A DNA stretch of 64,000 nt from Fidelibacterota bacterium (GCA_022573815.1 JACZTG010000001.1:859-64858), one strand, 5' to 3'. Numbered from the stretch's first letter, positions 1,088-23,823 are shown. Made by a program: numbers and translations. The notes: generated by a model not told the origin, from the sequence alone.

Positions 1088-1375
1088 TTGGAAAATAATA
1101 AAGATCTGCTCATTAAGGTATTTACACATCCTGCCTGCAGCGGCTGCGGGAGAGCGGTTGAACTTGCATGGAATCTCACACAGGAATACACTTCGTTGAA
1201 ATTGGTGACAATTAAACTCGAAAATAAAGAAGGTCTCCGGATGGCTCACGACGCAAAAATAAAAACAATCCCTACAGTGATTTATTATTCAGGTGAAGAA
1301 GAAAAAATACGAATTGTCGGAACGCCTAAAGGATCTGAACTGAAAGATTCTTATCTGAAATTGTTAGAAAATTAA
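1088..1375 (+). CDS. Small thioredoxin-fold protein with a CxxC motif (CSGC)
   Basis: 95 aa with a TTG start. HPACSGCGRAVE carries the CxxC motif. It occupies the slot where a TusA-like carrier is usually found in sHdr loci. Confidence 0.45.
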   Translation: MENNKDLLIKVFTHPACSGCGRAVELAWNLTQEYTSLKLVTIKLENKEGLRMAHDAKIKTIPTVIYYSGEEEKIRIVGTPKGSELKDSYLKLLEN

Positions 1376-1473
1376 AAGAACAGGAGAAAGCTCTGTCAAT
1401 TTATAAAGACGCAAAGTATCAGGACGTACCTTATGAAGAGAAGAAGGCTCTTTTCGATGAAGTTAAAGGCGAT

Positions 1474-2112: not shown

Positions 2113-2135
2113 AAGTTAAAAGAAAGGAACAGATA

Positions 2136-4386: not shown

Positions 4387-4390
4387 CCGA

Positions 4391-6444: not shown

Positions 6445-6497
6445 GATTTTATTAAGCGTTGAAAGACAAAATAACAATTAAAGAGAACGGCTGACCT

Positions 6498-7004: not shown

Positions 7005-7241
7005 TTGGCGAGCGCATTGAATTGGGTGATTGTGGAATGGGGATGCCTGTCATCCGCGCATGGCAGGCGCTGAAGAAACAGCCCGTCGGGGGAATAGTCT
7101 GGTTGACGAGTTCACATCCGTGAGCGGAGCCCGATATCAACGCCTGGTGCAGGTCGTCCGGACAGAAGTTGCTGAAGATGGAAGAGGACGCTGAAGGAAA
7201 ACATTTTTACGTTCAAAGGATGAACTGATAAGGGAGAAATA

Positions 7242-7985: not shown

Positions 7986-8036
7986 TGAACAGTATTAAAA
8001 AACAGATATTAATTTTATATAATAAATGGAATATAT

Positions 8037-8972: not shown

Positions 8973-9051
8973 TCCGGTTGTCATATTGAGATATTCCATT
9001 TGGTCTGTCTCGTTGCTTCATTATTAATAACCTGTTAAATGCGAGTAAACT

Positions 9052-11097
9052 TTGTTAACGCAAACAGAACAGATAGCGTTTATACTTCTCACCGTTGTTA
9101 GCATAGCGTTTGCATGGCGTGGTTTCAGCCGATTATTCAAGATTGTCAAGAGTGGAGCTGATACCGACCGGAGCGACGGATTAAGCGTCAGATTCATAAA
9201 GGCTCTTTTTGAAGTTGGAATTCAGAAACCTGTCTTTAAAGCCCGTCGCTGGGTAAGCGTTTTTCACTCATTCATCTTTTTCGGGTTCAGCTTTTACCTC
9301 TTGGTGAACGTGAATGACATCTTGGAAGCGTATGTTGACGGGTGGCATCTTATCGGAGCCGGTACCTTAGCCGGAGTGTTCAATCTCTTTGCGGACATAT
9401 TCAGCATCTTCGTTATTGTCGGAATGAATTTTTTTCTTTATCGGCGATTTGTTACAAAACCGAAAGAACTTGGTTACAACGATAATGTTATGCTTCATCC
9501 CGGTGTAGATTCAGGGGGAATAAAACGGGATTCTCTGTTAGTGGGTGTGTTTATTCTGTTGCATGTGGGCTCAAGATGGCTCGGCACTGTTTTCCATATA
9601 GCGGAATTGGGGCATGGCGATCCGTGGCTTCCTATTGCCAATTTATTTGCGCCTCTCTTTTCATTTATGAGCCATGAGTCCCTTGAAATTGCGATTCATA
9701 TTACGTGGTGGCTTGCAATGGGTTTGATAGTAATTTTTATACCGTATTTCCCGAGGAGCAAACATCTTCATCTAATGGTTGCGCCTGTCAACTTAGCGTT
9801 AGGGCGAAAAACTCCCCCAGGGAGGATGGACGATGTACTGAATATATCTTCTCCGGGAGCTGCGTCTCTCACCGACCTTCCTTGGCCGCAGGTGCTGGAC
9901 GCTTATGCCTGTATAATGTGTAACAGATGTCAGGAAGTCTGTCCCGCTCACACGTCAGGAACTCCACTGAGTCCAGCGGCGTTGGAGATAAACAAGCGGT
10001 ATTTTATCAACGAAAAAGGCGATGAAGTTCTCAACGGCGCAGGCGCGCAAAGTCTGATCGATTATGCTATTTCAGATGAAGCCGTATGGGCCTGCACAAC
10101 CTGCTATGCGTGCGTTCAGGTCTGTCCGGTGGGAAACGAGCCTCTTATGGATATACTGGAATTACGTCGGAATATGGTTTTTGACGGTAGGATGCCGGAC
10201 GAGCTTGCCGATGTGCTTCGGAGCTTAGACGAGCAGGGCAATTCGTTCAGGGAATCTGCAAGAAGGCGAACGCGTTGGACGAAGGATTTAGATTTTGAAA
10301 TAAAAGACGCTAAATCGGAACCCGTGAAGTATTTATGGTATGTAGGCGATTTTGCGTCATACAACCAATCGTGCAGGGACGTGAGCAGAAAATTAGCGCG
10401 GATTCTCCATTCGGCGGGAGTGGATTTCGGAATTATTATGAAAGGCGAAAAATCTGCGGGCAACGATGTTCGCAGGGTTGGCGAAGAAGGATTATTCGAA
10501 GCATTGGCGGAAGAAAATATTGAAACTCTCGCTCAGTGCGATTACGAGGAGATTTTTACTACCGATCCTCATACATATAACGCGCTGCATAACGAATACG
10601 GAAAATTTGGCGCTGAATATAAGATTAAACACTACTCCACACTGTTGAATGAGCTGATTGAAAGCGGAATGATAGAAATTAAAAAGAAAATCGACGCAAA
10701 AGCCACTTATCACGATCCATGCTATCTCGGTCGTTATAACGGAAATTATGAAGCTCCGCGTGACTTGATGAAAAGTTGCGGGGTAGAGCTGGTAGAGATG
10801 CCTCGGAACAGAGAAAACTCTTTCTGCTGCGGCGCGGGAGGCGGAAGAATCTGGATGAAAGACCACGATGATATGACACAGCGTCCGAGTGAGAACAGAA
10901 TAGAGGAGGCGATGGCTCTCGGTGGGATCGAATATTTCACAGTTTCCTGTCCGAAGGACTTTACGATGTATTCCGATGCGGTGAAAACATCCGGCAACGA
11001 AGGGAAGATAGAAGTCAGGGATATTGTTGATTATCTGATGGAAGCAATGGATTTACATGAAGAATCTGCGGCGAAAGAACCTCTGATTACAGAATAG
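9052..11097 (+). CDS. Membrane-anchored HdrD/DsrK-like FeS/CCG oxidoreductase (candidate Etf:quinone oxidoreductase, Emo-like)
   Basis: 681 aa with a TTG start. The N-terminal ~250 aa form 5-6 hydrophobic helices. Then come CIMCNRCQEVCP and CTTCYACVQVCP (two [4Fe-4S] motifs) and a C-terminal CCG domain, YHDPCYLGRYNGNYEAPRDL...FCCGAGGG. Confidence 0.6.
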   Translation: MLTQTEQIAFILLTVVSIAFAWRGFSRLFKIVKSGADTDRSDGLSVRFIKALFEVGIQKPVFKARRWVSVFHSFIFFGFSFYLLVNVNDILEAYVDGWHLIGAGTLAGVFNLFADIFSIFVIVGMNFFLYRRFVTKPKELGYNDNVMLHPGVDSGGIKRDSLLVGVFILLHVGSRWLGTVFHIAELGHGDPWLPIANLFAPLFSFMSHESLEIAIHITWWLAMGLIVIFIPYFPRSKHLHLMVAPVNLALGRKTPPGRMDDVLNISSPGAASLTDLPWPQVLDAYACIMCNRCQEVCPAHTSGTPLSPAALEINKRYFINEKGDEVLNGAGAQSLIDYAISDEAVWACTTCYACVQVCPVGNEPLMDILELRRNMVFDGRMPDELADVLRSLDEQGNSFRESARRRTRWTKDLDFEIKDAKSEPVKYLWYVGDFASYNQSCRDVSRKLARILHSAGVDFGIIMKGEKSAGNDVRRVGEEGLFEALAEENIETLAQCDYEEIFTTDPHTYNALHNEYGKFGAEYKIKHYSTLLNELIESGMIEIKKKIDAKATYHDPCYLGRYNGNYEAPRDLMKSCGVELVEMPRNRENSFCCGAGGGRIWMKDHDDMTQRPSENRIEEAMALGGIEYFTVSCPKDFTMYSDAVKTSGNEGKIEVRDIVDYLMEAMDLHEESAAKEPLITE

Positions 11098-11106
11098 GAG
11101 AGAAGT

Positions 11107-11553
11107 ATGAGCGACAGCACACAACTAAAATTTCCTGCCGACCGATATTACCATTCATCCAATCATATGTGGGCTAAGGAGACGGATGAAAACGGTGAAA
11201 TACTGGTAGGCATTGATGCGTTAGCGCTCGATTCGCTGGGTGAAATAGCCTATGCGTCTTTTGTTGAGATAAATACGGAAGTTAAAGCAGGCGACTCTAT
11301 CGGTACGCTTGAATCCGCCAAGATGACCACCGAAATATTCTCTCCCATATCCGGCGTGGTATCAGCTGTGAACGACATAGTACCGGAAACTCCGCTGCTT
11401 ATCAACGAACAGCCCTACGGTGAGGGTTGGCTGGTTGTTATCCGTGCGTCAGCTTGGGAAGCTGAATGCGCTGATTTAATATCTGGCGAAGAGATTTTTG
11501 AATGGTCACAGAATGAAATCGCAAGATATGAAACGGAAAATAATCAGAACTGA
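11107..11553 (+). CDS. lbpA: Second GcvH-like lipoate-binding protein (LbpA paralog)
   Basis: 148 aa. GTLESAKMTTEIFSPISGVV carries the lipoyl-lysine motif. Its TGATG overlap couples it to the downstream ligase gene. Confidence 0.6.
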   Translation: MSDSTQLKFPADRYYHSSNHMWAKETDENGEILVGIDALALDSLGEIAYASFVEINTEVKAGDSIGTLESAKMTTEIFSPISGVVSAVNDIVPETPLLINEQPYGEGWLVVIRASAWEAECADLISGEEIFEWSQNEIARYETENNQN

Positions 11554-12677
11554 TGGACTTGCGTCTTATAAAAGAGAACGGAGTCAGTGGCAGTTCCGGT
11601 TTAGCTGCTGACGAATCAATGGCTCTCAGGGTGGGGAGTGAAAAATCCCGTCCAACCCTAAGGCTCTATACCTATGATTCCTACAGCGCTCTTGTAGGAA
11701 GATTCCAAAACATTCAGAAAGAACTTAATCTCGAATATTGTCTCCAAAACTGTGTGGAATTTAACAGGCGACCCACAGGCGGAGGCGCAATTATTATGGG
11801 CGCAGACCAGCTCGGCGTCGCGTTAGCGTTGAAAGGAAACAAAACCGATACATATCATCGCGCTCGAGTATTGATGAAACAGTTTTCTGAGGGAACGGTG
11901 AAAACGCTTTCGAAGTTCGGTATCGAAGCTTCGTTCCGCGGGAAGAATGATATTGAGGTTGATGGAAGAAAAATCGCCGGATTGGGACTGCATAAAACAA
12001 GGACAGGCGGTCTTCTTTTTCACGCTTCAATTCTTGTAAACCTTGACGTGGAGCTAATGCTCAACGTATTGAGAACTCCCCTTAAAAGAATAACTGATAA
12101 AGCGGTTAAACTCGTTTCCGGCAGGATTACAACTGTGCGTAAACTTTTATCAAATGATATAACTGTAGATGAATTCAGCGCCGAGTTGGAAAAAGGTTTT
12201 TCTAAAGTATTCGGAGTAAATCTGATAAAGGGAGACTGGAGCAGTGAAGAAATCGGAGAATCTAATAAGTTGGAAGCAGAAAAATATCTGACAGAAAAAT
12301 GGATCTATTCTAAATCAAATGTCAAGGAGATGAATGGGAGAGCGGTCAGAAAAACAGAGGGTGGATTATTAGAGGTATCTGTAAATTTAGCGGGAAACAC
12401 GCTCAAAAAAGTGCAGATCGGCGGAGACATTTACGTTTCCGAAAACGCGCTGGCAGATTTGGAGTTCAGCCTCGCCTGGCATTCCGCTGCCTCTGATAAG
12501 ATAAAGGAAACTTTGAAACGGGTGTATAAAAAAAGAGAAAATGAATTTTCCAGGATCAGCTTTGATGACTTATATAACGGCGTACAGGATGCTGTGAAAG
12601 ACGCTTCTAATAACAGAACGGATATTGAAACCATGCCTTACGGCTGTTTCGTTAAAACGGATGGAAGTTATGCCTGA
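11553..12677 (+). CDS. lplA: Lipoate-protein ligase A-like enzyme (sLpl(AB)-type), with a C-terminal accessory domain
   Basis: 374 aa. NRRPTGGGAIIMG and IEVDGRKIAGLG match the BPL/LplA/LipB catalytic domain, including the conserved Lys. Confidence 0.65.
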   Translation: MDLRLIKENGVSGSSGLAADESMALRVGSEKSRPTLRLYTYDSYSALVGRFQNIQKELNLEYCLQNCVEFNRRPTGGGAIIMGADQLGVALALKGNKTDTYHRARVLMKQFSEGTVKTLSKFGIEASFRGKNDIEVDGRKIAGLGLHKTRTGGLLFHASILVNLDVELMLNVLRTPLKRITDKAVKLVSGRITTVRKLLSNDITVDEFSAELEKGFSKVFGVNLIKGDWSSEEIGESNKLEAEKYLTEKWIYSKSNVKEMNGRAVRKTEGGLLEVSVNLAGNTLKKVQIGGDIYVSENALADLEFSLAWHSAASDKIKETLKRVYKKRENEFSRISFDDLYNGVQDAVKDASNNRTDIETMPYGCFVKTDGSYA

Positions 12678-13644
12678 GCTCCTAACTCTGCCGGAAAATG
12701 TGACCGAGTTCCAAGTTGACCCGAATTGTATGTCTATTCGTCGGAGGAATTTTTCAAACGAAATTACTTTTCATATGCCCGGCCTCAAGACGCACCGGAC
12801 TTCAGAAATTGAAGGTTCATTGACGGAATTTGTTTCTCTGAGTGTGACGGGTTCAGCCTGCGCATTGAGCTGCGAGCACTGCAAAACGGAAGTGCTGAAG
12901 GGAATGGTGGATCTGACAGCCGAAGGGGGTTCTTTATATGATACCTGCCAGCGATTAGCGGAAAAGGGCGCACGGGGAGTTTTGGTCTCAGGCGGCAGTG
13001 ACCTGAAAGGCAGAGTCCCACTGTTGCAGCACGTGCCCGATTTGATAAGGATTCGAAAGGAATTAGGTTTGATTATTCGTTTGCATGTCGGACTTCCCGA
13101 CGAGGAAACGTGCGCGGCTATCTCGGAAATCGGCATAGACGGAGCGATGCTGGATATCATCGGTGATCAGGAAACAATATCCGATGTCTATCATCTGTCG
13201 GCTACGCCGGATGATTACGGAATGGCATTGGAAAATCTACAGCGATACAATGTGCCGACAATTCCGCATATTATCATCGGGCATTATTTCGGAAAGATGA
13301 AAGGTGAATGGAACGCGCTTCAGATGATTAAGAATAACCCGCCGAAAATTTTGGTACTGGTAATATTGATGCCGCTCACGGGAACGCCTATGGCAAACGT
13401 TTTACCTCCTTCAATGGACGAAATCGGATTGTTTTTTCAGACAGCCCGGATTGCATTACCAGAGACTCCTGTTATGCTGGGATGCGCCAAGCCGATAGGC
13501 GAAATGAAGCTGGGAGTAGATAAATTAGCCCTTGAAACGGGATTGAACGGAATCGCTTACCCCGCTGACGGGATAGTGGGTCAATCCGAACAACTCGGAT
13601 TAAAGCCGAATATCGTAAATGCTTGTTGTGGAGTAACCTGGTAA
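12661..13644 (+). CDS. Radical SAM protein (LipS1/LipS2-type lipoyl synthase candidate)
   Basis: The CALSCEHC motif (CxxxCxxC) lies near the N-terminus. I moved the start to ATG 12661 (MEVMPELL), which removes most of the overlap with the ligase gene. The longest ORF begins at 12625. Confidence 0.5.
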   Translation: MEVMPELLTLPENVTEFQVDPNCMSIRRRNFSNEITFHMPGLKTHRTSEIEGSLTEFVSLSVTGSACALSCEHCKTEVLKGMVDLTAEGGSLYDTCQRLAEKGARGVLVSGGSDLKGRVPLLQHVPDLIRIRKELGLIIRLHVGLPDEETCAAISEIGIDGAMLDIIGDQETISDVYHLSATPDDYGMALENLQRYNVPTIPHIIIGHYFGKMKGEWNALQMIKNNPPKILVLVILMPLTGTPMANVLPPSMDEIGLFFQTARIALPETPVMLGCAKPIGEMKLGVDKLALETGLNGIAYPADGIVGQSEQLGLKPNIVNACCGVTW

Positions 13645-13655
13645 AAGGGATAATA

Positions 13656-14747
13656 ATGGCAACTGAGATGTTAGCTCTGAGTGAGCAAAAGGAAATGCGG
13701 AATTTAAGCCCCGATTATGTGAGGATAAGCGCGGCGGCGGCAATCGAGCTGGGGCTAAAGCCGGGTCGGCTTGACAGGTGTAACTGTGGATGTATCAACT
13801 TGCTTCAGAATTATCCTGAAGGCTGTTACGCGAATTGCAGCTATTGCGGATTGGCCAGGGAACGTCCCGGTATTGCAGAAGAAAATTCGTTTATCAGAGT
13901 TGATTGGCCCCTTTATCCAACGGAGCAGGTGGCGGAGAAAATAGCTGAAAGGGAAGCGAATGGCGGGGTCGGAAGAGTTTGTATTGCGCAGGTGCAGGAT
14001 CATCGGGCAAACGCAGATCTTCTAAGTATGACGAAAATTGTTCACAGCGCGGCTCCTGACGTGCCTATCTCTGCTTTGGTTACAGCGACACTGATGGACA
14101 GACAGGTTCTTGCGGAGATAAAAGAAGCCGGAGCGGATATTATCGGAATCGGGATGGACGCCGCCACAGAAGAGATTTTTTATAATACCCGCGGAAAAGG
14201 CGCAAAGGGTCCCCACGATTGGAATTATCACTGGGAAATTGTAAATCTTGCCCGCGAGATGTACGGCGCTTATAAAGTGAATTGCCATATCATCATCGGA
14301 TTGGGCGAGACCGACAGGGATTTGACGAACATCTTTTATAAATGTAAGGAAGAGCAGTTGTCGTGCTACCTGTTCTCATTCAATCCTGAGCCGGGAACGG
14401 CATTGCAGGATTCGGAACGTCAGCCGATAGCCAGGCATCGGCGTATTCAGCTGGTCAAACAGTTGATAGAAAATAATGGACTTTCAAAAGACGCATTGGA
14501 ATTTGATAAAAACGGATTTATCTCGAATATAGATTATTCCGCTGATATTATTAATTTAACAGTGAATGAAGGAATCGCGTTTATGACGGACGGATGTCCC
14601 GATAGAGATGGTGTGATGGCGTGCAACAGACCATGCGGTTCCTACAGACCCGGAGAGGAATTCCGGGATTATCCATTTCCGCCAATGTCGAAAGATATAG
14701 AAGTGATTCAAAACGAGATGCGTCTAAATGAGGTAATCACCGCGTAA
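13656..14747 (+). CDS. Radical SAM protein with an extra N-terminal Cys cluster (LipS1/LipS2-type candidate)
   Basis: CYANCSYC is the radical SAM CxxxCxxC motif, preceded by the CNCGC extra Cys cluster and followed by a second Cys group (CPDRDGVMACNRPC). The start was set at ATG 13656, which has an aaagggataata RBS. The longest ORF begins at 13623. Confidence 0.5.
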   Translation: MATEMLALSEQKEMRNLSPDYVRISAAAAIELGLKPGRLDRCNCGCINLLQNYPEGCYANCSYCGLARERPGIAEENSFIRVDWPLYPTEQVAEKIAEREANGGVGRVCIAQVQDHRANADLLSMTKIVHSAAPDVPISALVTATLMDRQVLAEIKEAGADIIGIGMDAATEEIFYNTRGKGAKGPHDWNYHWEIVNLAREMYGAYKVNCHIIIGLGETDRDLTNIFYKCKEEQLSCYLFSFNPEPGTALQDSERQPIARHRRIQLVKQLIENNGLSKDALEFDKNGFISNIDYSADIINLTVNEGIAFMTDGCPDRDGVMACNRPCGSYRPGEEFRDYPFPPMSKDIEVIQNEMRLNEVITA

Positions 14748-14750
14748 ATT

Positions 14751-15743
14751 ATGGTAAAACCGATACGATTGATAGATTTAGGAGCGATTGACGGCATAAT
14801 GACTCAGGCGGTGTATCACGCGGTAGCGGAGAAAATGGATGAGTCAACGCCCGATACCATAATACTGAACAGCACAAAATCTCCGTATGTTTGTTTTGGC
14901 TATCATCAGGATGCGGAAAGTGTCATAGATTTGGATGTGTGCAGAAAATTAAATGTACCTGCGGTTCGCCGTAAATTGGGCGGAGGCGCTACTTATCTTG
15001 ATGAAAATCAGCTCTTTTACCAGCTGGTATTTCAAAAATCGGAATTGCCGGCAAATTTCAGGAATGTTTATGCGAAAATGTTGGAAGCGCCCGTGAAAAC
15101 CCTAAAATCGTTTGGACTTAACGCAAAACTAAAAGATATAAACGAGATAGAGGTTGACGGCAAACGGATTGCCGGAACGGGTGGCGGGCAAATAGGCGAT
15201 GCGTGTGTTGTTGTGGGGAACTTTTTATTCGATTTCGATTTTGAAGCTATGTCTTCATTATGGAAAGCTCCATGGGATTCTTTCCGAACACTTGCGGGAA
15301 AAGCGCTTAGGAACCACATTACAACTCTTTGGGAATACGACAGTTCATTCAGCAAAGAAATCATATCGTCGCAACTGATAATAGATTTTTCAGCTGTTTT
15401 TCAAAGACCGATTCAGCCGGGAGAATTAACTTCAGATGAGAAAGAACTCTCGGAGGAATTATCTGAGAAATTGAGCTCAACAGAGTTTGTTGTTGATACC
15501 AATAAAAACGGTGCGTCGCCAAGACCGCTTAAAATTTCTAACGGAGTTTTTATACACGCTGAAAATTATTCTTTGGGAGTAAATAGAATACGCGGCAGCT
15601 TTACGGTGGCAAATAATTTCATAGAAGAATCAATAATCGAGCTGCGGAATGGCAATTTATGGGAAGCAATTGATGTTGATCTTTATGGAATAGAGATTGC
15701 TGATTGGACAAATCATATTAAAATTGAATTGCGTGCTGCCTGA
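14751..15743 (+). CDS. Second LplA/LipB-family protein (lipoate/octanoyl transferase paralog)
   Basis: 330 aa. RRKLGGGATYLDENQLFYQ and IEVDGKRIAGTG parallel the motifs of the ligase at 11553. Confidence 0.5.
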   Translation: MVKPIRLIDLGAIDGIMTQAVYHAVAEKMDESTPDTIILNSTKSPYVCFGYHQDAESVIDLDVCRKLNVPAVRRKLGGGATYLDENQLFYQLVFQKSELPANFRNVYAKMLEAPVKTLKSFGLNAKLKDINEIEVDGKRIAGTGGGQIGDACVVVGNFLFDFDFEAMSSLWKAPWDSFRTLAGKALRNHITTLWEYDSSFSKEIISSQLIIDFSAVFQRPIQPGELTSDEKELSEELSEKLSSTEFVVDTNKNGASPRPLKISNGVFIHAENYSLGVNRIRGSFTVANNFIEESIIELRNGNLWEAIDVDLYGIEIADWTNHIKIELRAA

Positions 15744-16906
15744 TGGTTAAACTGCTAAAAAAATATCTGTCTGACCCGTTCCTGAAGCGGCTTTACAGTG
15801 AGATTCGAAAAGCAGGCTCTCTCCGGTCCATCTCTGTGGACATCACTCACGAGTGCAATATCCGGTGCAGAGGGTGTTATTTTTTCAGCGAGGGAATGGA
15901 AGAGTCTGAGTCTCCTCCCGATGAAAACAAATTTGATGCGTTTATAGAACGAGAGCTCGAACGGGGAACTAATTTTGTCACTGTTGTGGGAGGCGAACCG
16001 AGTCTCATGCTGGGGAGACTGAAAAAACTTCATTCAAATTTTCATATAAATGTTTCAACAAACGGTCTTATAAAAATACCATATGAAGGGTTCGAGTCAA
16101 TGCCTATCGGTGTTTCGGTATGGGGAGATAATCAGACAGACAGATATATGCGAGGCGGCGGAAACGTTGATACATTCGCGATAGCGCTGAAGAATTACAA
16201 AGACGATCCAAGAGCGTTCTGGTACTATACTGTGGCTCCGGGACGGAAGAATGAGATTGAGCGGGTAGTGGAGAAGTGTATAAACAACGGTAATCAGGTT
16301 TTATTTAATTTTTACGGCGATTTGTTAGGATTTGGCGGGGAATTGGATTCCGGCAGCGGTTTTGACGAAGTGAGAATTGAGATAGACCGAATGATCAGCC
16401 TCTACCCTGATAAGATGTTTATGAGTTCTTACCTGAGTAAAATCGTTTCAACAGGCACTTTATACGGTTTGAAATGGGGACATGAAGTATGCACGAGTTT
16501 GAGCGCGAATCACGAGGCGAATTTCGAAAGATTGAAAAACGGAAATCCTTATAACCCGCACTTCAGAGCTTATAATGCTGATTTGGAATCTACTCGTAGA
16601 TGCTGTACCGGAATCAACCGTTCGTGCCATACTTGTTTCGATGTCTGGGAGCATTTTTCGTGGGTAATTCTCAATATGAAAAAACATATCGGATCTAAGC
16701 AGGAATTCAGTAACTGGCTAACGACTATGTATCTGTTTTATCTTATAAACCGATTGGTGAATTTTGATGAAGGGATCAAGCTACTGCCGGAAATCCACAA
16801 ACGGCTTGGAAATACGACTAAGAGAGAATCACATAATATAGATAGAATCAAAATTTCTGCTTTCGCTACCGTGGAAAGCGGGTTAATGGAGATTACCGAT
16901 CCCTGA
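15743..16906 (+). CDS. Third radical SAM enzyme, carrying an additional C-terminal Cys cluster
   Basis: ITHECNIRCRGCYF is the radical SAM motif. The C-terminal RRCCTGINRSCHTCFD cluster could hold an auxiliary FeS cluster. Confidence 0.5.
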   Translation: MVKLLKKYLSDPFLKRLYSEIRKAGSLRSISVDITHECNIRCRGCYFFSEGMEESESPPDENKFDAFIERELERGTNFVTVVGGEPSLMLGRLKKLHSNFHINVSTNGLIKIPYEGFESMPIGVSVWGDNQTDRYMRGGGNVDTFAIALKNYKDDPRAFWYYTVAPGRKNEIERVVEKCINNGNQVLFNFYGDLLGFGGELDSGSGFDEVRIEIDRMISLYPDKMFMSSYLSKIVSTGTLYGLKWGHEVCTSLSANHEANFERLKNGNPYNPHFRAYNADLESTRRCCTGINRSCHTCFDVWEHFSWVILNMKKHIGSKQEFSNWLTTMYLFYLINRLVNFDEGIKLLPEIHKRLGNTTKRESHNIDRIKISAFATVESGLMEITDP

Positions 16907-16934: not shown

Positions 16935-17951
16935 ATGATAAACAATAACCATCGTTACTTGTCGTTGTTGGTAACACTGTTTTTCTTAGTCTCAATCCCG
17001 GCATTCAGCGACGCAGCCAAAAAGGAATACAGAGTGTATGAGTTCGTAATTGAATCTGTCGAGGGTACATTTGAAGCGGCGGCAGACAGCCTTTCTTCGG
17101 CGATAGCAATGTCGGATTGGAAGCTGCTTACTACTATCAATTCCGGTGTTCCGGAAGATTGTGGATTCCGTGCTATAGTATTTGTTTTATATGATTCGAC
17201 ATTCGCGGCGAAAATAATGGATGCGAACCATAAAACAGGGGCTTACGGCACTGTTGACCGGATAAATCTCTTTGAAGATGAAAACGGATTTCACGTGTCG
17301 ATTGCAAACCGCAAATCAACTGACCGGACGGTCTTGTTGGATGATGAGTCATTCGAGGGAACTACTAAGGCGCAGCATGATAATCTCCGGCTGCTTATTG
17401 AATCAGCCCTAAAGGGCACATCAAGCAACAAAGAATATGGTCAGAAGCGTAAAAAAGGATATATCGGACGAACAATGGGCGTTATGGCCGGCGGAAGTTT
17501 TGATGGCAAGATTGGTAATATTATTGAATTACCCGGAGCAAACTTTGACGATGTGGTCGGTAAAGCTCGCCAGGGTTTATCTATGACCGGTGAGAAATGG
17601 GGGATGCACTTAGTTTACGAATTAAATCTTCCCGGATATAAAACTGTGGTATTCGGAAGTACGGGGACTCCGATGGACAGGAAATCATTCGATATAGTTA
17701 AGGCGGGTTCGGACAAATCACGCAAAAAGGGAAAGTGTCCCGGAATTGCTCATGCCGCCGCTTTTCCGATTGAAATCGTAGTACAGGAAGAAAACGGAGT
17801 TATCAATGTCAGTAGCGTTAATGCGATGTACAGGATGAAGATGTATTTTGAGGACGCCGGGAAATGGGCGTTTATGAAAAATATGACTATGCCCGGTTCA
17901 ATAGGAAGTGAATTGGAAGATCAGATCGAAGGAGTATTGGAAGAAGAATGA
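16935..17951 (+). CDS. Secreted protein with two DUF302-like repeats (tentative)
   Basis: The signal peptide is MINNNHRYLSLLVTLFFLVSIPAFSDA. Two segments have a DUF302-like pattern: AIVFVLYDS...GTVDRINLFEDENGFHVS and TVVFGSTGTPMD...FPIEIVVQEENGVINVS. Its stop overlaps the next gene (ATGA). Confidence 0.3.
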   Translation: MINNNHRYLSLLVTLFFLVSIPAFSDAAKKEYRVYEFVIESVEGTFEAAADSLSSAIAMSDWKLLTTINSGVPEDCGFRAIVFVLYDSTFAAKIMDANHKTGAYGTVDRINLFEDENGFHVSIANRKSTDRTVLLDDESFEGTTKAQHDNLRLLIESALKGTSSNKEYGQKRKKGYIGRTMGVMAGGSFDGKIGNIIELPGANFDDVVGKARQGLSMTGEKWGMHLVYELNLPGYKTVVFGSTGTPMDRKSFDIVKAGSDKSRKKGKCPGIAHAAAFPIEIVVQEENGVINVSSVNAMYRMKMYFEDAGKWAFMKNMTMPGSIGSELEDQIEGVLEEE

Positions 17952-19531
17952 ACTTAGCATTCACAATAGATAATCGGAAGTGTATCGGCTGTCATGCTTG
18001 CACGGTAGCATGTAAGTCAGAGCATGATATTCCATTAGGAGTCAACAGAACATGGGTAAAGTATGTGGAAAAGGGCGTTTATCCCGATACCCGCAGACTT
18101 TTCTCGGTTCTTCGGTGCAACCATTGTGAAGATGCTCCTTGCATTGATATATGCCCGACCAATGCTCTGCACACTCTCGATAACGGTATTGTGGACTTTG
18201 ATACTGATCGGTGTATAGGCTGCAAATCATGCATGCAAGCGTGTCCGTATGACGCGTTATATATCAATCCGGAAACTCACGTGGCAGAAAAATGTAATTT
18301 CTGCGCCCACCGGATAGAAGCGCAAATGGCGCCGGCATGCGTGATTGTATGTCCCGTTGAGGCGATTGGATTTGGCGATATAAGTGACCCGAACGCCGAT
18401 ATTACGAAACTTATCGCAATGGAAGCTGTTACCGTGCGAAAAGCGGAAAAAGGAACAAAGCCGAAAGTGTTTTATATTAACGGTGACAGCGCTTCGCTTG
18501 ATCCCGGCTCAACTGCAAAAAAAGACGAATATATGTGGAGCGAGCAATCACGCGGTGTGGGACATTTCGCTCATTACGCCGACCAACGGAGCTCTGAAAA
18601 AGACCCTGAAGATCTGCTCGTGCAACTCGCTCTTGATAATAAGGGTAAACATGGGAAAGAGATTCAGGAGACGCTGAAATCCGGGGATGCCCGAAGAGTT
18701 TACGACAGTCCGAGCAAGGGCGTTCTCTGGGGCTGGGAAGTATCCGCTTATGTTTGGACAAAGGCTATTTCAGCGGGTCTGTTTATGGTATTGGCTTTAG
18801 GAAGCTTGTTCGGATGGTTTGAGATAAGCGCTGGATTGAGAGAAAAATCTCTCTGGTCGTCAATGCTCTTTTTGGTCATTACCGGCGGACTGTTGGTTAA
18901 GGACCTTGACCAACCGAAACGGTTTCTCTATGTCCTGCTCCGACCTCATTGGTCATCGTGGTTGGTCAAAGGAGCTTATTTCATCACGGCGTTCGGGGCA
19001 ATCTTATCTCTTTCCATATTGAATCTTTATTTCCCAACAGGAATAGACAGTCGTCTGTTTGATATTATCGGAGGCTTGATTGCCTTTATGGTAGCCATAT
19101 ACACGGCGTTACTTTTCGCTCAGGCGAAGGGAAGAGATTTTTGGCAGTCGCCGATTGCGCCGGCGCAAATGGGTGTGAATTCACTGCTTGCCGGAACTGC
19201 GCTTCTGCTGATGCTCGGCTCCGGCTTAGGCAGCGGGATAATCAATCTCGCAATAGCTCTTCTGATTACAAACCTGTTATTCACCGCACTTGAGCTGTTC
19301 ACGCCGCATATGACGGACGACGCAAAATCGGTTGCGGATATGATTCTTAAAGGGAGATACGGCAGACAATTCTGGATAACGATAATTTTTTCAAGAGTAG
19401 TACCGCTATTATTGTTTATGTTCGCGCCGCAATTATTGCCAATAGATTTAGTGGCGTTGATAGTATTAGCGGGAATATTAAGTACTGAACATATCTGGGT
19501 CAGAGCTCCGCAACTGATAACCTTGAGTTGA
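17948..19531 (+). CDS. Fusion of a four-cluster ferredoxin subunit (PsrB/NrfC/DmsB-like) with an NrfD/PsrC-like integral membrane anchor
   Basis: 527 aa. The N-terminal ~180 aa hold four Cys clusters: CIGCHACTVAC, CNHCEDAPCIDICP, CIGCKSCMQACP and CNFCAHRIEAQMAPACVIVCP. The C-terminal ~330 aa form about 8 hydrophobic helices. No signal or Tat motif is visible. Confidence 0.6.
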   Translation: MNLAFTIDNRKCIGCHACTVACKSEHDIPLGVNRTWVKYVEKGVYPDTRRLFSVLRCNHCEDAPCIDICPTNALHTLDNGIVDFDTDRCIGCKSCMQACPYDALYINPETHVAEKCNFCAHRIEAQMAPACVIVCPVEAIGFGDISDPNADITKLIAMEAVTVRKAEKGTKPKVFYINGDSASLDPGSTAKKDEYMWSEQSRGVGHFAHYADQRSSEKDPEDLLVQLALDNKGKHGKEIQETLKSGDARRVYDSPSKGVLWGWEVSAYVWTKAISAGLFMVLALGSLFGWFEISAGLREKSLWSSMLFLVITGGLLVKDLDQPKRFLYVLLRPHWSSWLVKGAYFITAFGAILSLSILNLYFPTGIDSRLFDIIGGLIAFMVAIYTALLFAQAKGRDFWQSPIAPAQMGVNSLLAGTALLLMLGSGLGSGIINLAIALLITNLLFTALELFTPHMTDDAKSVADMILKGRYGRQFWITIIFSRVVPLLLFMFAPQLLPIDLVALIVLAGILSTEHIWVRAPQLITLS

Positions 19532-19535
19532 TAAA

Positions 19536-22394
19536 ATGAGTCATAATATAAAAAAATCAATGATCGAACGGGTATGCGAATCGATAGGCTTGTTAAAAAG
19601 TATCGAACAGTCCGGCGAATTAATAAATGAATTTACGGAAGCACCGGCTGATTTCTCGAATTATCCACCACCTGAGAAATGGGACGACTGGACCGAGTAC
19701 GATGCGAACTCGTGGCCGCGAAGGGTAAAGAAGAGCTACTCGATAGTTCCAACGACCTGCTTCAACTGCGAATCAGCATGCGGTATGCTGGCGTATATTG
19801 ATAAGGAAAATGGCACAATCAGGCGGTTTGAAGGTAATCCGTATCATCCGGGAAGCAGAGGAAGAAATTGCGCTAAAGGTCCCGCTACTATAAATCAGAT
19901 CAATGATCCCGAGAGGATATTATACCCGCTGAAACGTAAAGGCGAGAGAGGCAGCGGTGAATGGGAACGGGTTTCATGGGAAGACGCTCTTAACGATATA
20001 TCAGGAAAATTAAGAAAATCGTTGCAGGAAGGGCGACAAAATAATATAGCCTATCATGTAGGAAGACCGGGTCATGAAGGATACACGGAAAGGGTTCTTC
20101 AGGCGTGGGGAGTGGATGGGCATAATTCGCATACCAATATATGCTCTGCCGGAGCGCGGACAGGATATGCTCTCTGGCAAATGTTCGACAGACCCTCTCC
20201 CGACCACGCCAACGCAAAGACGATCTTACTCATCAGTTCACATTTGGAAACGGGACACTATTTCAATCCGCACGCGCAAAGGATAATTGAAGGGATGATG
20301 GACGGCGCGAAACTCATAGTTATGGATCCGCGACTTTCGAATACTGCGAGTATGGCGGATGTATGGATGCCGACTTATCCGGGTTCTGAAGCGGCTGTAC
20401 TGCTTGCAATTGCGAAAATCATTCTCGATGAAGGCAAATATGACAGACAATATATGGAAACATGGGTAAACTGGCAGGATTATATGGCGAAAGTTCATCC
20501 TTCTGATAATCCGACTTTTGATAACTTTATAGGACGACTCAAAAAAGAGTATGAAGAATTCACACCTGAATTCGCGGCGGCTGAGGCTAATATCACACCT
20601 GAGTCTATCGTACAGGCAGCTAAAATGGTGGCGGATGCGGGAAGTAAACTCTCAACGCACAACTGGCGTTCCGCGGGAAGCGGGAACCTCGGCGGATGGC
20701 AGGTAGCGCGTTGTCTCCACTTTCTGAATGTATTGACAGGCAGCGTTGGAACTGTAGGCGGCACATCTCCCAGCGGTTGGAATAAATTCAAGCCTAAATT
20801 CTTCGATGTTCCTCCGGCACAGAAATTCTGGAATGAACTGCACTATCCCGCTGAATATCCGATAGCGCACCATGAAATGAGTTTTCTTCTCCCGCATTTT
20901 CTAAAGGAGGGAAGAGGGGAATTAGACGTTTACTTCACCCGGGTTTTTAATCCTGTCTGGACTTATCCGGACGGATTCACATGGATAGAAGCGTTGAAGG
21001 ATGAATCAAAAATAAAATTACACGTTGCGATGACTCCCACATGGAACGAAACGGCTTATTGGGCGGATTATGTGCTTCCCATGGGGCATGCAGGCGAGCG
21101 GCACGACCTTAATTCCTACGAAACACATTCAGGAATGTGGATAGCGTTCCGTCAGCCGGTGCTACGGGAGTTTGCCCGCAGAGAAGGAAAAGAGGTTGAG
21201 TTTACTTATGAAGTGAACCCCGGTGAGGTATGGGAAGAAGATGAGTTTTGGATAGAGCTTTCGTGGAAGATAGACCCGGATGAATCGCTCGGCATAAGAA
21301 AACATTTCAAGTCTCCTTATCGTGATGGCGAAAAAATCAGTGTGGACGAATATTATCAATATATCTTTGAAAATATTCCGGGCTTGAAGGATAAAGCCGC
21401 TGAGGAAGATTTGGCTCCGCTTGACTATATGAGAAAATACGGCGCATTTGAAATTGAAGAAACTTCATACGAAAAAAACCGAAACCCGCTGGATGAATCA
21501 CAAATGGAAGGCACGGAACTGAACAGCGCCGGTCAGATCGTTAAAGACGGTAAAATTATCGGGGTTCAGGATGGCGAAGTAGCTGTCACCGGGTTTCCGA
21601 CACCATCGAAAAAACAGGAATTCTACTCCAACACAATGGCTGAATGGAAATGGGAAGAATTTACCATCCCTAAATATATCAAGAGTCACATTCACCCCGA
21701 GAATCTTGATAAATCGAAAAACGAATACGTCCTTGTGCCCACTTTCAGACTACCTACCTTGATTCACAGCCGGTCGGGAAACGCTAAATGGCTCGTTGAG
21801 ATTGCGCACCGAAATCCAATATGGATCCATCCTTCCACAGCTGAAAAAGTAGGTATAAAAAACAGCAGCGATCTACTGAAGATTGAAACAGAAATCGGCT
21901 ATTTCATAGACAAGGTATGGATAACGGAGGGGATGAAGCCCGATGTTATCGCCTGTTCCCATCATATCGGCAGATGGCGTCGCCGGCAGGATATGAAAGG
22001 AAACAGTTGGGCAATGAATACGGTTTCTATCGAAGAGGTAGAGCCGGGTAAGTATAAAATGTCGGTTTTGGATTCTGTTAAGCCATTTGACAGCAGCGAC
22101 AGCGACTCGAAACGTATCTGGTGGCGTGACGGCGGAGTGCATCAAAATATTACATTCCCTGTCCATCCCGATCCTATATCGGGTATGCATTGCTGGCATC
22201 AGAAAGTATCCATCAGCGTTCCGAAGGATGGGGAGAAATACGGCGATATATTCGTGGACACGAATAAGTCCCATGAGGTTTATAAAGAGTGGCTGAAGTT
22301 GACCCGTCCCGGCCCCGGCCCTGACGGCTTGAGACGTCCTCTCTGGTTTGCCCGGACTCTGAGACCGGCGGAAGAAACTTTCTACGTTAAATAA
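19536..22394 (+). CDS. Molybdopterin oxidoreductase catalytic subunit (MopB superfamily; Psr/Phs/Ttr/Arr-like branch suspected), apparently without a Tat signal
   Basis: 952 aa. CFNCESACGM...C provides the N-terminal FeS0 site. GNPYHPGSRGRNCAKG is a MopB signature and ICSAG is a candidate Mo-ligand Cys. The N-terminus has no RRxFLK motif. Confidence 0.7.
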   Translation: MSHNIKKSMIERVCESIGLLKSIEQSGELINEFTEAPADFSNYPPPEKWDDWTEYDANSWPRRVKKSYSIVPTTCFNCESACGMLAYIDKENGTIRRFEGNPYHPGSRGRNCAKGPATINQINDPERILYPLKRKGERGSGEWERVSWEDALNDISGKLRKSLQEGRQNNIAYHVGRPGHEGYTERVLQAWGVDGHNSHTNICSAGARTGYALWQMFDRPSPDHANAKTILLISSHLETGHYFNPHAQRIIEGMMDGAKLIVMDPRLSNTASMADVWMPTYPGSEAAVLLAIAKIILDEGKYDRQYMETWVNWQDYMAKVHPSDNPTFDNFIGRLKKEYEEFTPEFAAAEANITPESIVQAAKMVADAGSKLSTHNWRSAGSGNLGGWQVARCLHFLNVLTGSVGTVGGTSPSGWNKFKPKFFDVPPAQKFWNELHYPAEYPIAHHEMSFLLPHFLKEGRGELDVYFTRVFNPVWTYPDGFTWIEALKDESKIKLHVAMTPTWNETAYWADYVLPMGHAGERHDLNSYETHSGMWIAFRQPVLREFARREGKEVEFTYEVNPGEVWEEDEFWIELSWKIDPDESLGIRKHFKSPYRDGEKISVDEYYQYIFENIPGLKDKAAEEDLAPLDYMRKYGAFEIEETSYEKNRNPLDESQMEGTELNSAGQIVKDGKIIGVQDGEVAVTGFPTPSKKQEFYSNTMAEWKWEEFTIPKYIKSHIHPENLDKSKNEYVLVPTFRLPTLIHSRSGNAKWLVEIAHRNPIWIHPSTAEKVGIKNSSDLLKIETEIGYFIDKVWITEGMKPDVIACSHHIGRWRRRQDMKGNSWAMNTVSIEEVEPGKYKMSVLDSVKPFDSSDSDSKRIWWRDGGVHQNITFPVHPDPISGMHCWHQKVSISVPKDGEKYGDIFVDTNKSHEVYKEWLKLTRPGPGPDGLRRPLWFARTLRPAEETFYVK

Positions 22395-22527: not shown

Positions 22528-23823
22528 TTAGAATGAGTATCCAACTTCAACCTCCCATTGATCCATCTCAAGGGTAATAGTCTGCTGAGAAGGAGCTTCT
22601 AATGGATTAGGACCTGAAATCGAATTTGACAATGCACGAGTAACTGCCAAGCTGACAGCATGACCGTTATTCATTGTTTTGGTAGCGCCGACGGAGATAT
22701 GAGTTTCCACCACTGCCGGAGCGAGTATATTAAACATTAAAGCAGTACTTGTGTCGCCGTCAGGTATGGGCTGACCACCGAATGAAAAACCGCCTCTAAG
22801 TGTGAGGCTTTCGTCCATAACGTATTGAATGCCTATTTTGATGATGGTCATATCTTCCCATCCGAATCCGGCGCCGTTATCTGCACCAAGAGGGTTTGTC
22901 GGCGCTCCGGTCGCAGGATCGAATTGAAGAAACGGGTTGCTGATTGATGCAACACCGCTGTATAAAATCTGCTGAACATCCGCCACAAGAGTAATATCAT
23001 CATTGGGACTCAGAGCAACGCCCGCTGTCCATGTGGCTGGAACGTCAAAATCACCCTGTTCGGCAAATAATCCGGCGTACTCGTCAAATTCACTCATCGC
23101 TGTTTTTAATTGGTATGAAGCCCCAACAGACAGCATTTCAGAAAGCTCGCCGAGATAACCGACTTTTAGACCGAACCCGATTGAAGTAGAATAATCATTG
23201 TCCGTTATATTAGCGCCATCGGAGGAAAATGGTGCGAATGCTCCCAAACCTTCCGCTCTGAAACGCTGAAATGCCAAAATCACGCCTGCTCCAACAGAAT
23301 GTTGTGAAGTAAGCTTGATAGCATACGTAGGTTGGATGAAGAGCTGCGCAAAATCAAGACCCGTTGGATTAAAACCGAAAACCGGTGATTCGTAATCAGA
23401 ATTCATACCGCCGTTGCCGTAAATAGAAACACCATATGAACTTGTCTCATTCAGCATCCTGTTAAATCCTAATGAAGGGATGATAAAAGTAGTGGAACTG
23501 CTTTCAACGGTGCCCGGCGCTAAACCGAAAGTACCCGGAAATCCTGACGGATTACCGTCAACAGTGAAATTTCTATTCGGGTTGAAGTAGGCGACGCTGA
23601 GGTCGTAGCGATTTCCAAGCCCTACCATAGATGCCGGATTAGTGGCGGCGGCTAAAGTGCTCAAAGAAAGAGCAACTCCTGCTCCGGCTAAACCTTTATA
23701 AGCGGTGCCGTATCCGCTGGAAAAATATCCGTTTGTTGCATTGGCAACCGGTGCCGTTATTAGAACTGCAACCAGAATAATTGCAGTTAGAGTTGTGAAA
23801 TTACGCATCTTTGATGTGATCAT
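22528..23823 (-). CDS. FadL/TodX/OmpP1-family outer-membrane beta-barrel transporter
   Basis: 431 aa with a signal peptide. The N-terminus, NGYFSSGYGTAYKGLAGAGVALS...NPASM, follows the FadL pattern. The C-terminus ends in EVGYSF, i.e. a terminal Phe. Confidence 0.55.
   Translation of the reverse strand: MITSKMRNFTTLTAIILVAVLITAPVANATNGYFSSGYGTAYKGLAGAGVALSLSTLAAATNPASMVGLGNRYDLSVAYFNPNRNFTVDGNPSGFPGTFGLAPGTVESSSTTFIIPSLGFNRMLNETSSYGVSIYGNGGMNSDYESPVFGFNPTGLDFAQLFIQPTYAIKLTSQHSVGAGVILAFQRFRAEGLGAFAPFSSDGANITDNDYSTSIGFGLKVGYLGELSEMLSVGASYQLKTAMSEFDEYAGLFAEQGDFDVPATWTAGVALSPNDDITLVADVQQILYSGVASISNPFLQFDPATGAPTNPLGADNGAGFGWEDMTIIKIGIQYVMDESLTLRGGFSFGGQPIPDGDTSTALMFNILAPAVVETHISVGATKTMNNGHAVSLAVTRALSNSISGPNPLEAPSQQTITLEMDQWEVEVGYSF

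Follow-up and report, generated by a model that had tools for sequence, protein, structure and literature searches.

It is probable that the genes at 17948-22394 encode a two-gene, cytoplasm-facing sulfite:quinone oxidoreductase of the SoeABC/PSRLC3 type, and that the secreted DUF302 protein encoded immediately upstream is not a subunit of it but forms a separate pair with a FadL-type channel. The enzyme is an already known two-gene form and not a new kind.

Organization of the locus

Three genuine open reading frames lie on the plus strand of the window (the whole 64,000-nucleotide stretch of Fidelibacterota DNA that was analysed). ORF1 (16935-17951) encodes a secreted 338-aa tandem DUF302-fold protein. 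It is followed by a gene for a fused FeS-NrfD (BC) protein of 527 aa (17948-19531), assigned from Pfam, NCBIfam, Cys motifs, hydropathy and positive-inside counts, and by the gene for the 952-aa MopB catalytic subunit (A, 19536-22394), assigned from Pfam, PDB sequence alignment and a family alignment. Stop/start overlaps had been proposed at both junctions; the first (17948/17951) is a true ATGA overlap, but the second (19531/19536) is a 4-nt gap. A FadL/TodX-type outer-membrane channel (22528-23823, Pfam Toluene_X) is encoded on the minus strand, convergent with the Mo-enzyme genes.

The plus strand upstream of ORF1 carries a type II sHdr module (175-11097) in which Pfam identified DsrE (175-549), LbpA (604-1026), sHdrC1 (1474-2112), sHdrB1 (2136-3332), sHdrA (3319-4386), a fused C2B2-like sHdrB3 (5149-6444), EtfB/EtfA (7242-8972) and an EMO-like FeS/CCG protein (9052-11097); a hypothetical protein is encoded at 4391-5149. 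The cluster is complete and its gene order agrees with the published type II arrangement, shdrC1B1AHB3-etfAB-emo (PMC11094781). Beyond it are genes for a second LbpA (11107-11553), an LplA-like lipoate-assembly protein (11553-12677), LipS1 (12625-13644; NCBIfam 230.6 bits, cut-off 230), LipS2 (13623-14747; NCBIfam 196 bits, under the cut-off of 270), a second LplA-like protein (14751-15743) and a third radical-SAM protein (15743-16906), those given without scores being assigned from Pfam/NCBIfam. This plus-strand series of type II sHdr-LbpA and lipoate-assembly genes ends 28 nt before ORF1. An ortholog of the third radical-SAM protein, 64% identical, adjoins an ORF1 homologue at another locus (L094).

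The catalytic subunit

Subunit A matches Molybdop_Fe4S4 (PF04879), Molybdopterin (PF00384) and Molydop_binding (PF01568), all over the Pfam cut-offs. The CxxCxxxC motif for cluster FS0 begins with C75, and the family alignment shows C112 to be invariant. The Cys of an ICSAG motif, put forward earlier as the candidate Mo ligand, is C203 (HTNICSAG; codon 20142-20144). It is invariant across the family alignment of MopB homologues and aligns opposite C173 of Thermus PsrA, which we take, after Jormakka et al. 2008, to be the Mo ligand of that enzyme.

The sequence-only reading had found no twin-arginine signal on this subunit, and re-evaluation of the start codon bears this out. Neither an RR motif nor a hydrophobic stretch occurs in the first 60 residues, and a longer upstream start is impossible because in-frame stops stand directly upstream. 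A Tat-like motif or hydrophobic N-terminal stretch was found in 0 of 120 MopB homologues. Judged from these sequences, the family as a whole lacks a Tat signal, and an N-terminal extension of approximately 70 residues, not of Tat type, is conserved in it.

The fused FeS-membrane subunit

As had been noticed, the FeS subunit and the NrfD anchor are one polypeptide (Pfam Fer4_11, residues 52-144; NrfD, residues 257-511). A SoeB/PsrB-like four-cluster FeS domain (residues 1 to ~190), with 16 Cys arranged in four cluster motifs, is joined by a linker of ~65 residues to an eight-helix anchor of the SoeC/PsrC/NrfD type (~257-527), which accounts for eight hydrophobic segments. The NrfD match of the membrane domain is modest (E = 4e-11), which counts against a SoeABC/PSRLC3-type enzyme. 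A scan of 90 related loci showed the same fusion in about 75.

The FeS domain also has no signal, in agreement with the earlier claim. Its first Cys motif begins at residue 12 and its alignment to the TtrB, NrfC and DsrO profiles begins only at profile position ~41-45, so that the signal segment of these families, a leader of ~40 residues, is missing. The number of Lys plus Arg residues in the fused protein is 12/4/2/2/1 for cytoplasmic loops vs 0/0/0/0 for periplasmic loops. This positive-inside bias supports an N-in/C-in topology of the anchor, with the FeS domain lying on the cytoplasmic side. A cytoplasm-facing enzyme, as first suggested, is supported both by these charges and by the lack of a Tat or Sec signal on either subunit, here and family-wide.

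Taken together, the two proteins have the features of a CISM enzyme: Mo-bisPGD domains, the FS0 motif, a Cys ligand, a four-cluster B domain and a haem-free NrfD/PsrC-type anchor, with B and C in one chain. Its orientation had been called unusual for Psr/Phs/Ttr-like CISM enzymes. This is true of Psr, Phs and Ttr themselves, but facing the cytoplasm is a defining trait of SoeABC (PMC8076601).

Proposed role in sulfite oxidation

From gene context, the enzyme is most likely a cytoplasmic sulfite:quinone oxidoreductase completing the sHdr pathway. Context favours an oxidase whose sulfite comes from sHdr and whose electrons go to the quinone pool, rather than an enzyme that supplies sHdr. Among surveyed sulfur oxidizers, soeABC is present in every genome with a type I hdr cluster (PMC6397845). 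According to the published model, cytoplasmic sulfite would arise from protein-bound sulfane sulfur through oxidation by the type II sHdr-LbpA system encoded upstream. The Mo-bisPGD centre of the 952-aa subunit, with C203 as ligand by alignment, would then convert sulfite, the putative substrate, to sulfate. Two electrons would travel by way of FS0 and then the fused subunit's four [4Fe-4S] clusters, predicted from their motifs, and reach quinone at a site within the NrfD-type domain, whose inverted orientation is supported by the charge bias. As the substrate and quinone sites would both be on the N side, the quinone pool would probably be fed without a redox loop. To our knowledge no enzyme of the fused BC-A clade has been purified to date, and the substrate of the clade is therefore read from context alone. 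Counting against sulfite oxidation, the related Aquifex aeolicus enzyme can in addition reduce both tetrathionate and sulfur in vitro.

Were it instead a cytoplasm-facing reductase of polysulfide, thiosulfate or tetrathionate, or an enzyme acting reversibly on sulfane or thiosulfonate sulfur, electrons would pass from quinol to an intracellular sulfur compound. Such an activity is implied by the 'psr' annotation of the Marinimicrobia genes, which the literature read as psrABC, and the term 'psrBC' occurs 11 times in Wright et al. 2014; both count in its favour. By sequence the closest solved relative is PsrA of the Thermus thermophilus polysulfide/thiosulfate reductase (PDB 2vpw-2vpz, E = 1e-31), followed by ArrA; PhsA is the best NCBIfam match, and carriers of sulfane or thiosulfonate sulfur (TusA/DsrE) are often encoded next to the enzyme. 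However, every curated reductase model scores far under its NCBIfam cut-off (PhsA 195 vs 694, TtrA 104 vs 1750 and ArrA 92 vs 1600 bits), and respiratory Psr, Phs and Ttr are exported by Tat, whereas members of this family never are (0/120). The context is oxidative, with sHdr here and persulfide dioxygenase and sulfate permeases elsewhere, and a review warns that the direction of psr-like genes is not assignable from sequence. On this evidence a reductase is unlikely.

The tandem DUF302 protein and its channel

Upstream of the enzyme, ORF1 encodes a secreted tandem DUF302-like protein, as the sequence-only reading had it, with a Sec-type signal (residues ~1-25) and two DUF302-fold domains (N-domain ~30-160, C-domain ~190-338). 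One Cys is conserved in each half, namely C76, which is invariant, and C268, which occurs in at least 90% of sequences. The protein has the DUF302 alpha/beta fold. At the gathering score of Pfam DUF302 (PF03625) there was no hit for ORF1 itself, and sub-threshold matches were found in 10 of 38 ORF1 homologues (best E = 0.004, 17 bits vs a cut-off of 23).

The coupling of this protein to the enzyme, also claimed earlier, turned out to be local: no homologue of ORF1 (E ≤ 1e-5) was found in the 90 related Mo-enzyme loci. ORF1 would be co-transcribed and translationally coupled with the BC gene here, yet would not contribute a subunit. A FadL-type channel gene, on the other hand, lies beside the ORF1 homologue in 6/6 other contexts, and in five of these six there is no Mo enzyme within 8-9 kb of that homologue. 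The channel of the window matches Toluene_X (PF03349) over residues 29-396 (E = 5e-25) and shares 52-55% identity, along its entire length, with the Toluene_X genes adjoining ORF1 homologues in L091-L094 and L096. By this similarity it is an ortholog of the channel gene paired with ORF1 homologues elsewhere.

A functional partnership between the DUF302 protein and the Mo enzyme, in which the former might serve as a periplasmic subunit or as a sensor that docks on the NrfD domain, is quite improbable. In its favour, besides the 4-nt ATGA overlap of ORF1 with the fused BC gene, an ORF1 homologue is directly 5' of a fused BC gene in a KSB1 locus (L092), and Marinimicrobia loci have a different ORF of 312-314 aa, with a hydrophobic N-terminus, which overlaps the beginning of the BC gene just where ORF1 does. 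However, this Marinimicrobia ORF has no significant profile similarity to ORF1 (hhalign E = 0.14). The 0/90 count and the constant presence of the channel, mostly far from any Mo enzyme, also argue against a partnership, and the catalytic and FeS parts would be across the membrane from the secreted protein.

The DUF302-FadL pair, apparently undescribed previously, is the sole element here that is possibly new. Sulfur genes neighbour it in other contexts; a sigma-54 regulator gene is nearby in four of the six, and in three of those a histidine kinase gene as well. The pair would probably have its role in the envelope, at a step preceding the cytoplasmic pathway. Very tentatively, it may be a module that takes up a putative hydrophobic sulfur substrate and hands it to YeeE-type importers of the inner membrane, from which sulfur would pass via TusA/DsrE to sHdr and then to the Soe-like enzyme; cyclo-octasulfur, organic polysulfanes and a volatile organosulfur compound are candidate substrates. 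The 6/6 adjacency, the sulfur neighbours, the sigma-54 genes and the occurrence of DUF302 genes in sox clusters point this way, but we regard the proposal as doubtful.

Distribution and gene neighbourhood of the enzyme

More than 8000 homologues of the enzyme were found, their source names being just 'formate dehydrogenase' or 'molybdopterin-dependent oxidoreductase'. Among the matches listed, the fused-BC and A pair is 55-76% identical in Marinimicrobia, Bacteroidota, KSB1, Chlorobium, Chloroflexota, Actinomycetota, haloarchaea and MGII archaea. Cultured carriers include Rhodococcus jostii RHA1, Thermomicrobium roseum and Flavilitoribacter nigricans. A genome scan gave the 80 closest loci, and 90 related loci were scanned for neighbours; in nearly all loci the fused BC gene is directly 5' of the A gene. 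At least three Chlorobium/Chlorobiaceae loci, at 62-63% identity, each have a 521-aa fused BC gene. In Chlorobium sp. N1 (L059), for example, BC (521 aa) is 48% and A (955 aa) 62% identical to the proteins of the window. TusA and DsrE are encoded near the Chlorobium loci.

Among 1.84 billion cluster representatives there was one full-length representative at > 50% identity. The bSreA/SoeA lineage, described as cytoplasmic and Cys-ligated, is so highly conserved that clustering at 50% collapses it, and the family here behaves in the same way, as this one representative illustrates.

Elsewhere the usual neighbours of the pair are rhodanese-persulfide dioxygenase fusions (sulfite makers), TusA, DsrE and SulP or Na/sulfate-type permeases. 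PDO-rhodanese, TusA/DsrE, SulP, YeeE-type Sulf_transp and persulfide-type ArsR/CsoR regulators recur independently across phyla, in Marinimicrobia, Bacteroidota, Actinomycetota, Myxococcota, Chlorobium and Thermomicrobium. In a crude tblastn screen at least one sulfur-type neighbour was present in 26 of 51 long loci; in about half of the related loci the same kind of screen detected no sulfur gene within 6 kb, which counts against a sulfite oxidase. A substrate other than sulfur (an arsenite, selenite or nitrite oxyanion, or an organic compound), with sulfur genes nearby only by chance, would suit these loci, the uninformative homologue names and a clade whose substrate is deduced rather than measured, but it is highly improbable since the same sulfur neighbours recur independently in six groups and arsenic, selenium or nitrogen genes were not seen adjoining the enzyme loci.

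Comparison with known systems

The peripheral subunits of SoeABC face the N side and its NrfD subunit is inverted (PMC8076601). Like SoeABC of Allochromatium vinosum and Aquifex aeolicus, the sulfite:quinone oxidoreductase proposed here is a CISM enzyme whose subunits all lack signal peptides and whose peripheral subunits face the cytoplasm; in both, Mo is ligated by Cys and the catalytic subunit has an FeS cluster at its N-terminus. Both accompany a cytoplasmic sulfite-producing system, which is Dsr or sHdr for SoeABC and, in the window, the type II sHdr-LbpA directly upstream. SoeABC subunits are ~109, 27 and 36 kDa, comparable to 952 aa plus 527 aa. However, SoeABC is encoded by three genes in the order A-B-C, whereas here the order is BC-A with B and C fused. 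SoeABC is an enzyme of Proteobacteria and Aquificae; the published SoeC census covers these and a few Clostridia (PMC8076601), and the FCB group, Chloroflexota, Actinomycetota and archaea found here are absent from it. The tie to SoeABC is putative and is drawn from orientation, architecture and context.

PSRLC3, named in green sulfur bacteria, is encoded by two genes and is inferred to be a cytoplasmic sulfite oxidase, functionally akin to SoeABC (PMC5473276, PMC6338057, PMC9324843). The window shares with it a two-gene locus, a PsrA-like gene with a fused PsrBC-like gene, and the lack of an export signal; PSRLC3 itself is known from its genes. From their architecture and the literature description, rather than from locus tags, we infer that the Chlorobium fused-BC loci are the PSRLC3 of the literature. 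The fusion is reportedly a defining trait of PSRLC3 (Frigaard & Bryant 2008; Gregersen 2011). In green sulfur bacteria PSRLC3 accompanies the Dsr system, whereas a type II sHdr cluster lies upstream here.

Thermus PsrABC resembles the enzyme in its FS0 motif, in the Cys that ligates Mo (C173 opposite C203) and in having a four-cluster B and an eight-helix C. PsrA, however, is Tat-exported, periplasmic and ~190 residues shorter than the subunit of the window, good alignment is limited to the N-terminal third, and its B and C are separate.

E. coli FadL is only a distant relative of the channel (NCBIfam 30 bits vs a cut-off of 585). Elsewhere FadL/TodX channels take hydrophobic compounds, but the conserved neighbours of the window-type channel are genes of sulfur oxidation, not of fatty-acid or aromatic degradation. 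Single-domain DUF302 genes recur in sox clusters of Acidithiobacillia and Sulfitobacter, in the latter also beside YeeE/YedE, whereas ORF1 is outside sox genes and paired with a FadL-type channel. Compared with its DUF302 relatives TT1751 (1j3m) and APC35924 (1q9u), ORF1 joins two DUF302 folds in one secreted chain, as a built-in pseudo-dimer.

Gene content and junctions

The three ORFs that the sequence-only reading had placed in this region, all on the forward strand, were recovered at exactly those coordinates. ORF1 (16935-17951, 338 aa) has one hydrophobic segment followed by AFS/DA, a Sec-type signal. The BC gene (17948-19531, 527 aa) encodes a four-cluster ferredoxin domain (16 Cys in four motifs, with a Fer4_11 match) and a NrfD-type domain of eight hydrophobic segments, fused in a single chain. 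The MopB gene (19536-22394, 952 aa) encodes the catalytic subunit, with three MopB domains and the FS0 Cys motif. As each of the three proteins has hundreds to thousands of full-length homologues, these are real genes and not chance ORFs. Two stop/start overlaps had been claimed; that between ORF1 and BC is an ATGA overlap, but BC and MopB are separated by a 4-nt gap.

Orientation and active site of the molybdoenzyme

The proposal that the enzyme faces the cytoplasm is borne out by both absent signals and loop charges. Re-evaluation of the MopB start yielded no Tat signal, and none of 120 MopB homologues has a Tat-like motif or RR within the first 45 residues. A mis-called start masking such a signal is excluded, since in-frame stops directly upstream make a longer reading frame impossible and the N-terminus is conserved in the family: the first ~70 residues form a non-hydrophobic extension (IEKxAExLxLIP...YPPPEKWDDW) found family-wide. 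In the BC protein the first cluster motif begins at residue 12. Alignment of the FeS domain to the TtrB, NrfC and DsrO profiles starts at profile positions 41-45, showing that it lacks the leader of those proteins. Loops of the eight-helix domain have Lys+Arg counts of 12/4/2/2/1 on the FeS-domain side against 0/0/0/0 on the opposite side; by the positive-inside rule, this bias puts the FeS domain on the cytoplasmic side, together with the catalytic subunit. The Cys in ICSAG that had been put forward as the Mo ligand is C203, which aligns with C173 of Thermus PsrA and is invariant in the family alignment.

Spread and conservation of the enzyme pair

The catalytic subunit has > 8000 homologues, the best named matches being from Marinimicrobia and KSB1. 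Identity is 76% in Marinimicrobia, about 70% in Bacteroidota, KSB1, Calditrichota, SAR324 and Verrucomicrobiota, 60 to 63% in Chlorobium and MGII/Poseidoniales archaea, and 55 to 58% in Thermomicrobium roseum, Rhodococcus jostii RHA1 and haloarchaeal plasmids. Cultured carriers include R. jostii RHA1 (pRHL3), T. roseum, Flavilitoribacter nigricans DSM 23189, Lutibacter aestuarii and Chlorobium sp. N1. A library clustered at 50% identity yielded a single full-length MopB representative that is > 50% identical; the next full-length match, from Myxococcota, is at 40%. Nearly all loci with enough flanking sequence have a fused FeS-NrfD gene as the immediate upstream neighbour of the MopB gene. Because the fusion is conserved and the Tat signal is absent family-wide, these are traits of a large existing family rather than peculiarities of the window.

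A genome scan for MopB covered the best 80 of at least 594 loci, none of these 80 being proteobacterial. Among 72,556 plasmids, tblastn matches comprised the same fused family in Thermomicrobium, Rhodococcus and haloarchaea, together with unrelated MopB genes (B-C-A-TorD clusters of Azoarcus and Sulfurovum, and 726- to 732-aa enzymes of Rhizobium/Caballeronia); SoeA was not among them. The bacterial type of enzyme pair is also found, at 56 to 63% identity, in haloarchaea and marine group II (Poseidoniales/Thalassarchaeaceae; L006, L063, L068, L071, L077, L079, L082 and L083), a distribution implying that this highly conserved module has been transferred between domains.

Two variations in gene arrangement were observed. 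In a KSB1 genome (L092, 12209-13792) the BC and MopB genes are separated by one for a multicopper oxidase with a T9SS sorting tail. In R. jostii RHA1 (L005, 10799-11968) and Natrinema halophilum (L006, 11032-12192) the MopB gene is overlapped at its end by one for an Mrp/NBP35-family ATPase, possibly a dedicated factor for FeS-cluster maturation; neither the window nor the 80 genome loci screened have such a gene.

Gene neighbours and likely role of the enzyme

Sulfur-related genes recur around the enzyme pair. Marinimicrobia have TusA, DsrE, a rhodanese-persulfide dioxygenase fusion and a Na/sulfate-type permease beside it; a 5-Mb genome has two SulP permeases, a persulfide dioxygenase (PDO)-rhodanese, a YeeE-type transporter and a SoxA/TsdA cytochrome; and Rhodococcus pRHL3 has DsrE, TusA, MBL/PDO-type hydrolases and ArsR regulators. 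In Myxococcota the neighbours are PDO-rhodanese and YeeE-type genes, in Chlorobium they are TusA and DsrE, and in Thermomicrobium there is a CsoR-type regulator. A crude tblastn screen found at least one such sulfur-related neighbour in 26 of 51 long loci. Persulfide dioxygenase produces sulfite and sulfate permeases remove sulfate, so a cytoplasmic enzyme encoded between the two is most simply a sulfite dehydrogenase, converting sulfite to sulfate. There is some probability that it is instead a reductase, as genes of this kind in Marinimicrobia are read in the literature, where they are annotated 'psr'. The best solved relative is PsrA, with good alignment over the N-terminal third only, and scores against curated reductase models fall far under the cut-offs (PhsA, 195 of 694 bits; TtrA, 104 of 1750).

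Assignment as a sulfite dehydrogenase would replace the ambiguous 'psr' and 'formate dehydrogenase' labels carried by this gene pair, which is very widespread across Marinimicrobia, marine Bacteroidota, MGII archaea, KSB1, Chloroflexota and Actinomycetota. Ocean and sediment metagenomes would then be read as showing a potential for sulfite detoxification or oxidation instead of sulfur reduction.

In the window, the enzyme pair follows a complete type II sHdr (sulfur oxidation) cluster on the same strand. sHdr is thought to make sulfite in the cytoplasm, an idea supported by this adjacency. The sHdr and lipoate-assembly genes (175-16906) run continuously on one strand into the enzyme genes and comprise dsrE, lbpA, shdrC1B1A-hyp-B3, etfBA, an EMO-like emo, a second lbpA and lplA/lipS1/lipS2 (the full sLpl/LipS1/LipS2 set), an sHdr gene order that is the published type II arrangement (PMC11094781). 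Among surveyed sulfur oxidizers, soeABC was present in every genome with a type I hdr cluster (PMC6397845). Of the 80 related genome loci screened (L011-L090), not one has sHdr within 6 kb of the enzyme pair.

The secreted tandem-DUF302 protein and its FadL-type partner

The coupling of the DUF302 protein to the molybdoenzyme is local only, as none of 90 related Mo-enzyme loci carries an ORF1 homologue. In contrast, in all six other contexts examined for an ORF1 homologue (L091-L096), it adjoins a gene for a Toluene_X (FadL/TodX-type) outer-membrane channel. The first gene after the Mo enzyme in the window (22528-23823, minus strand) encodes an ortholog of these channels at 52 to 55% identity. 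Thus the conserved unit is 'FadL-type channel + secreted tandem DUF302', which in the window is split, its two genes flanking those of the Mo enzyme. Genes around the six contexts include TusA, DsrE, LbpA and sHdr genes, SulP, a type II sHdr/Etf/EMO cluster, and YeeE-type transporters with a multihaem cytochrome and cytochrome b. Four of the six (L091, L092, L093 and L096) also have a gene for a sigma-54 regulator, accompanied in L091, L092 and L096 by a histidine kinase.

ORF1 has 564 homologues of 330 to 340 aa. The N-terminus is signal-like in 116 of the 120 listed, and in 96 of them the mature part contains exactly two Cys; C76 of ORF1 is invariant and C268 nearly so. No Pfam domain was found in ORF1, and a PDB sequence search with its profile gave chance kinase matches only. 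Its description as tandem DUF302-like is correct at the level of fold. It rests on structure, since the N- and C-terminal halves have no detectable sequence similarity (hhalign, E = 0.042, probability 1%). Single-domain DUF302 genes are already known inside sox clusters.

It is an attractive but wholly inferential idea that the DUF302/FadL pair carries a hydrophobic sulfur compound through the envelope. Such a conserved module, with outer-membrane and periplasmic parts encoded next to sulfur-oxidation genes, would bear on the old question of how hydrophobic or zero-valent sulfur passes the envelope of Gram-negative bacteria. It would also give a first functional lead for DUF302. This pair is the element worth follow-up.

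Several related genes were seen nearby or in other loci. FadL-type genes also lie beside Soe-like pairs in Chlorobium sp. N1 (L059, 2401-3786; only 24% identical to the window channel) and in an unclassified MAG (L017, 2-943; 56% identical). At the position of ORF1, two loci (L001, 7461-8405; L099, 7467-8405) have a Marinimicrobia ORF of 312 to 314 aa with a hydrophobic N-terminus, which overlaps the BC start. It has no Pfam match and only 18 homologues, and its similarity to ORF1 is not significant (BLASTP E = 0.16, hhalign E = 0.14). Directly upstream of ORF1 in the window, a third radical-SAM protein (15743-16906, 387 aa) is neither LipS1 nor LipS2. L094, which also has a type II sHdr/Etf/EMO cluster, encodes a 64% identical ortholog (9502-10566) two genes downstream from its ORF1 homologue. 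The radical-SAM protein may be a further member of the lipoate-assembly set, or its substrate may be the two-Cys DUF302 protein.

Other features of the window

A 348-aa ORF (44713-45759) carries a ribosomal protein S16 domain (residues 9-67) with a C-terminal extension of about 280 residues, and the 2 kb around it has a strikingly high AT skew (0.34). A T9SS sorting-tail protein (28657-30378) and a 1349-aa C25 (gingipain-type) peptidase (37114-41163) are both encoded on the minus strand. These two proteins suggest a member of the FCB group, in keeping with the Marinimicrobia and KSB1 matches of the enzyme.

Comparison with SoeABC and PSRLC3

Cytoplasmic orientation and a Cys ligand are the parts of the original interpretation that stand, but enzymes of this kind are already known and widespread, and the DUF302 protein is not a conserved partner. 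SoeABC, a sulfite:quinone enzyme, is the CISM enzyme described as facing the cytoplasm, its NrfD subunit being inverted (PMC8076601). A superfamily survey found the bSreA/SoeA lineage to be cytoplasmic and Cys-ligated, with nearly all members removed by clustering at 50%, and the present family behaves in the same way. PSRLC3 of green sulfur bacteria, a '2-gene' complex, has been cited as an alternative sulfite-oxidizing system (PMC5473276, PMC6338057, PMC9324843). The Chlorobium loci have exactly this two-gene form with a fused BC, and the window enzyme, at 62% identity to them, is therefore filed by gene architecture and described traits in the PSRLC3/Soe-like group, as a putative relative of SoeA. 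Relative to canonical SoeABC, the window enzyme is distinguished by its B-C fusion and by the gene order BC-A.
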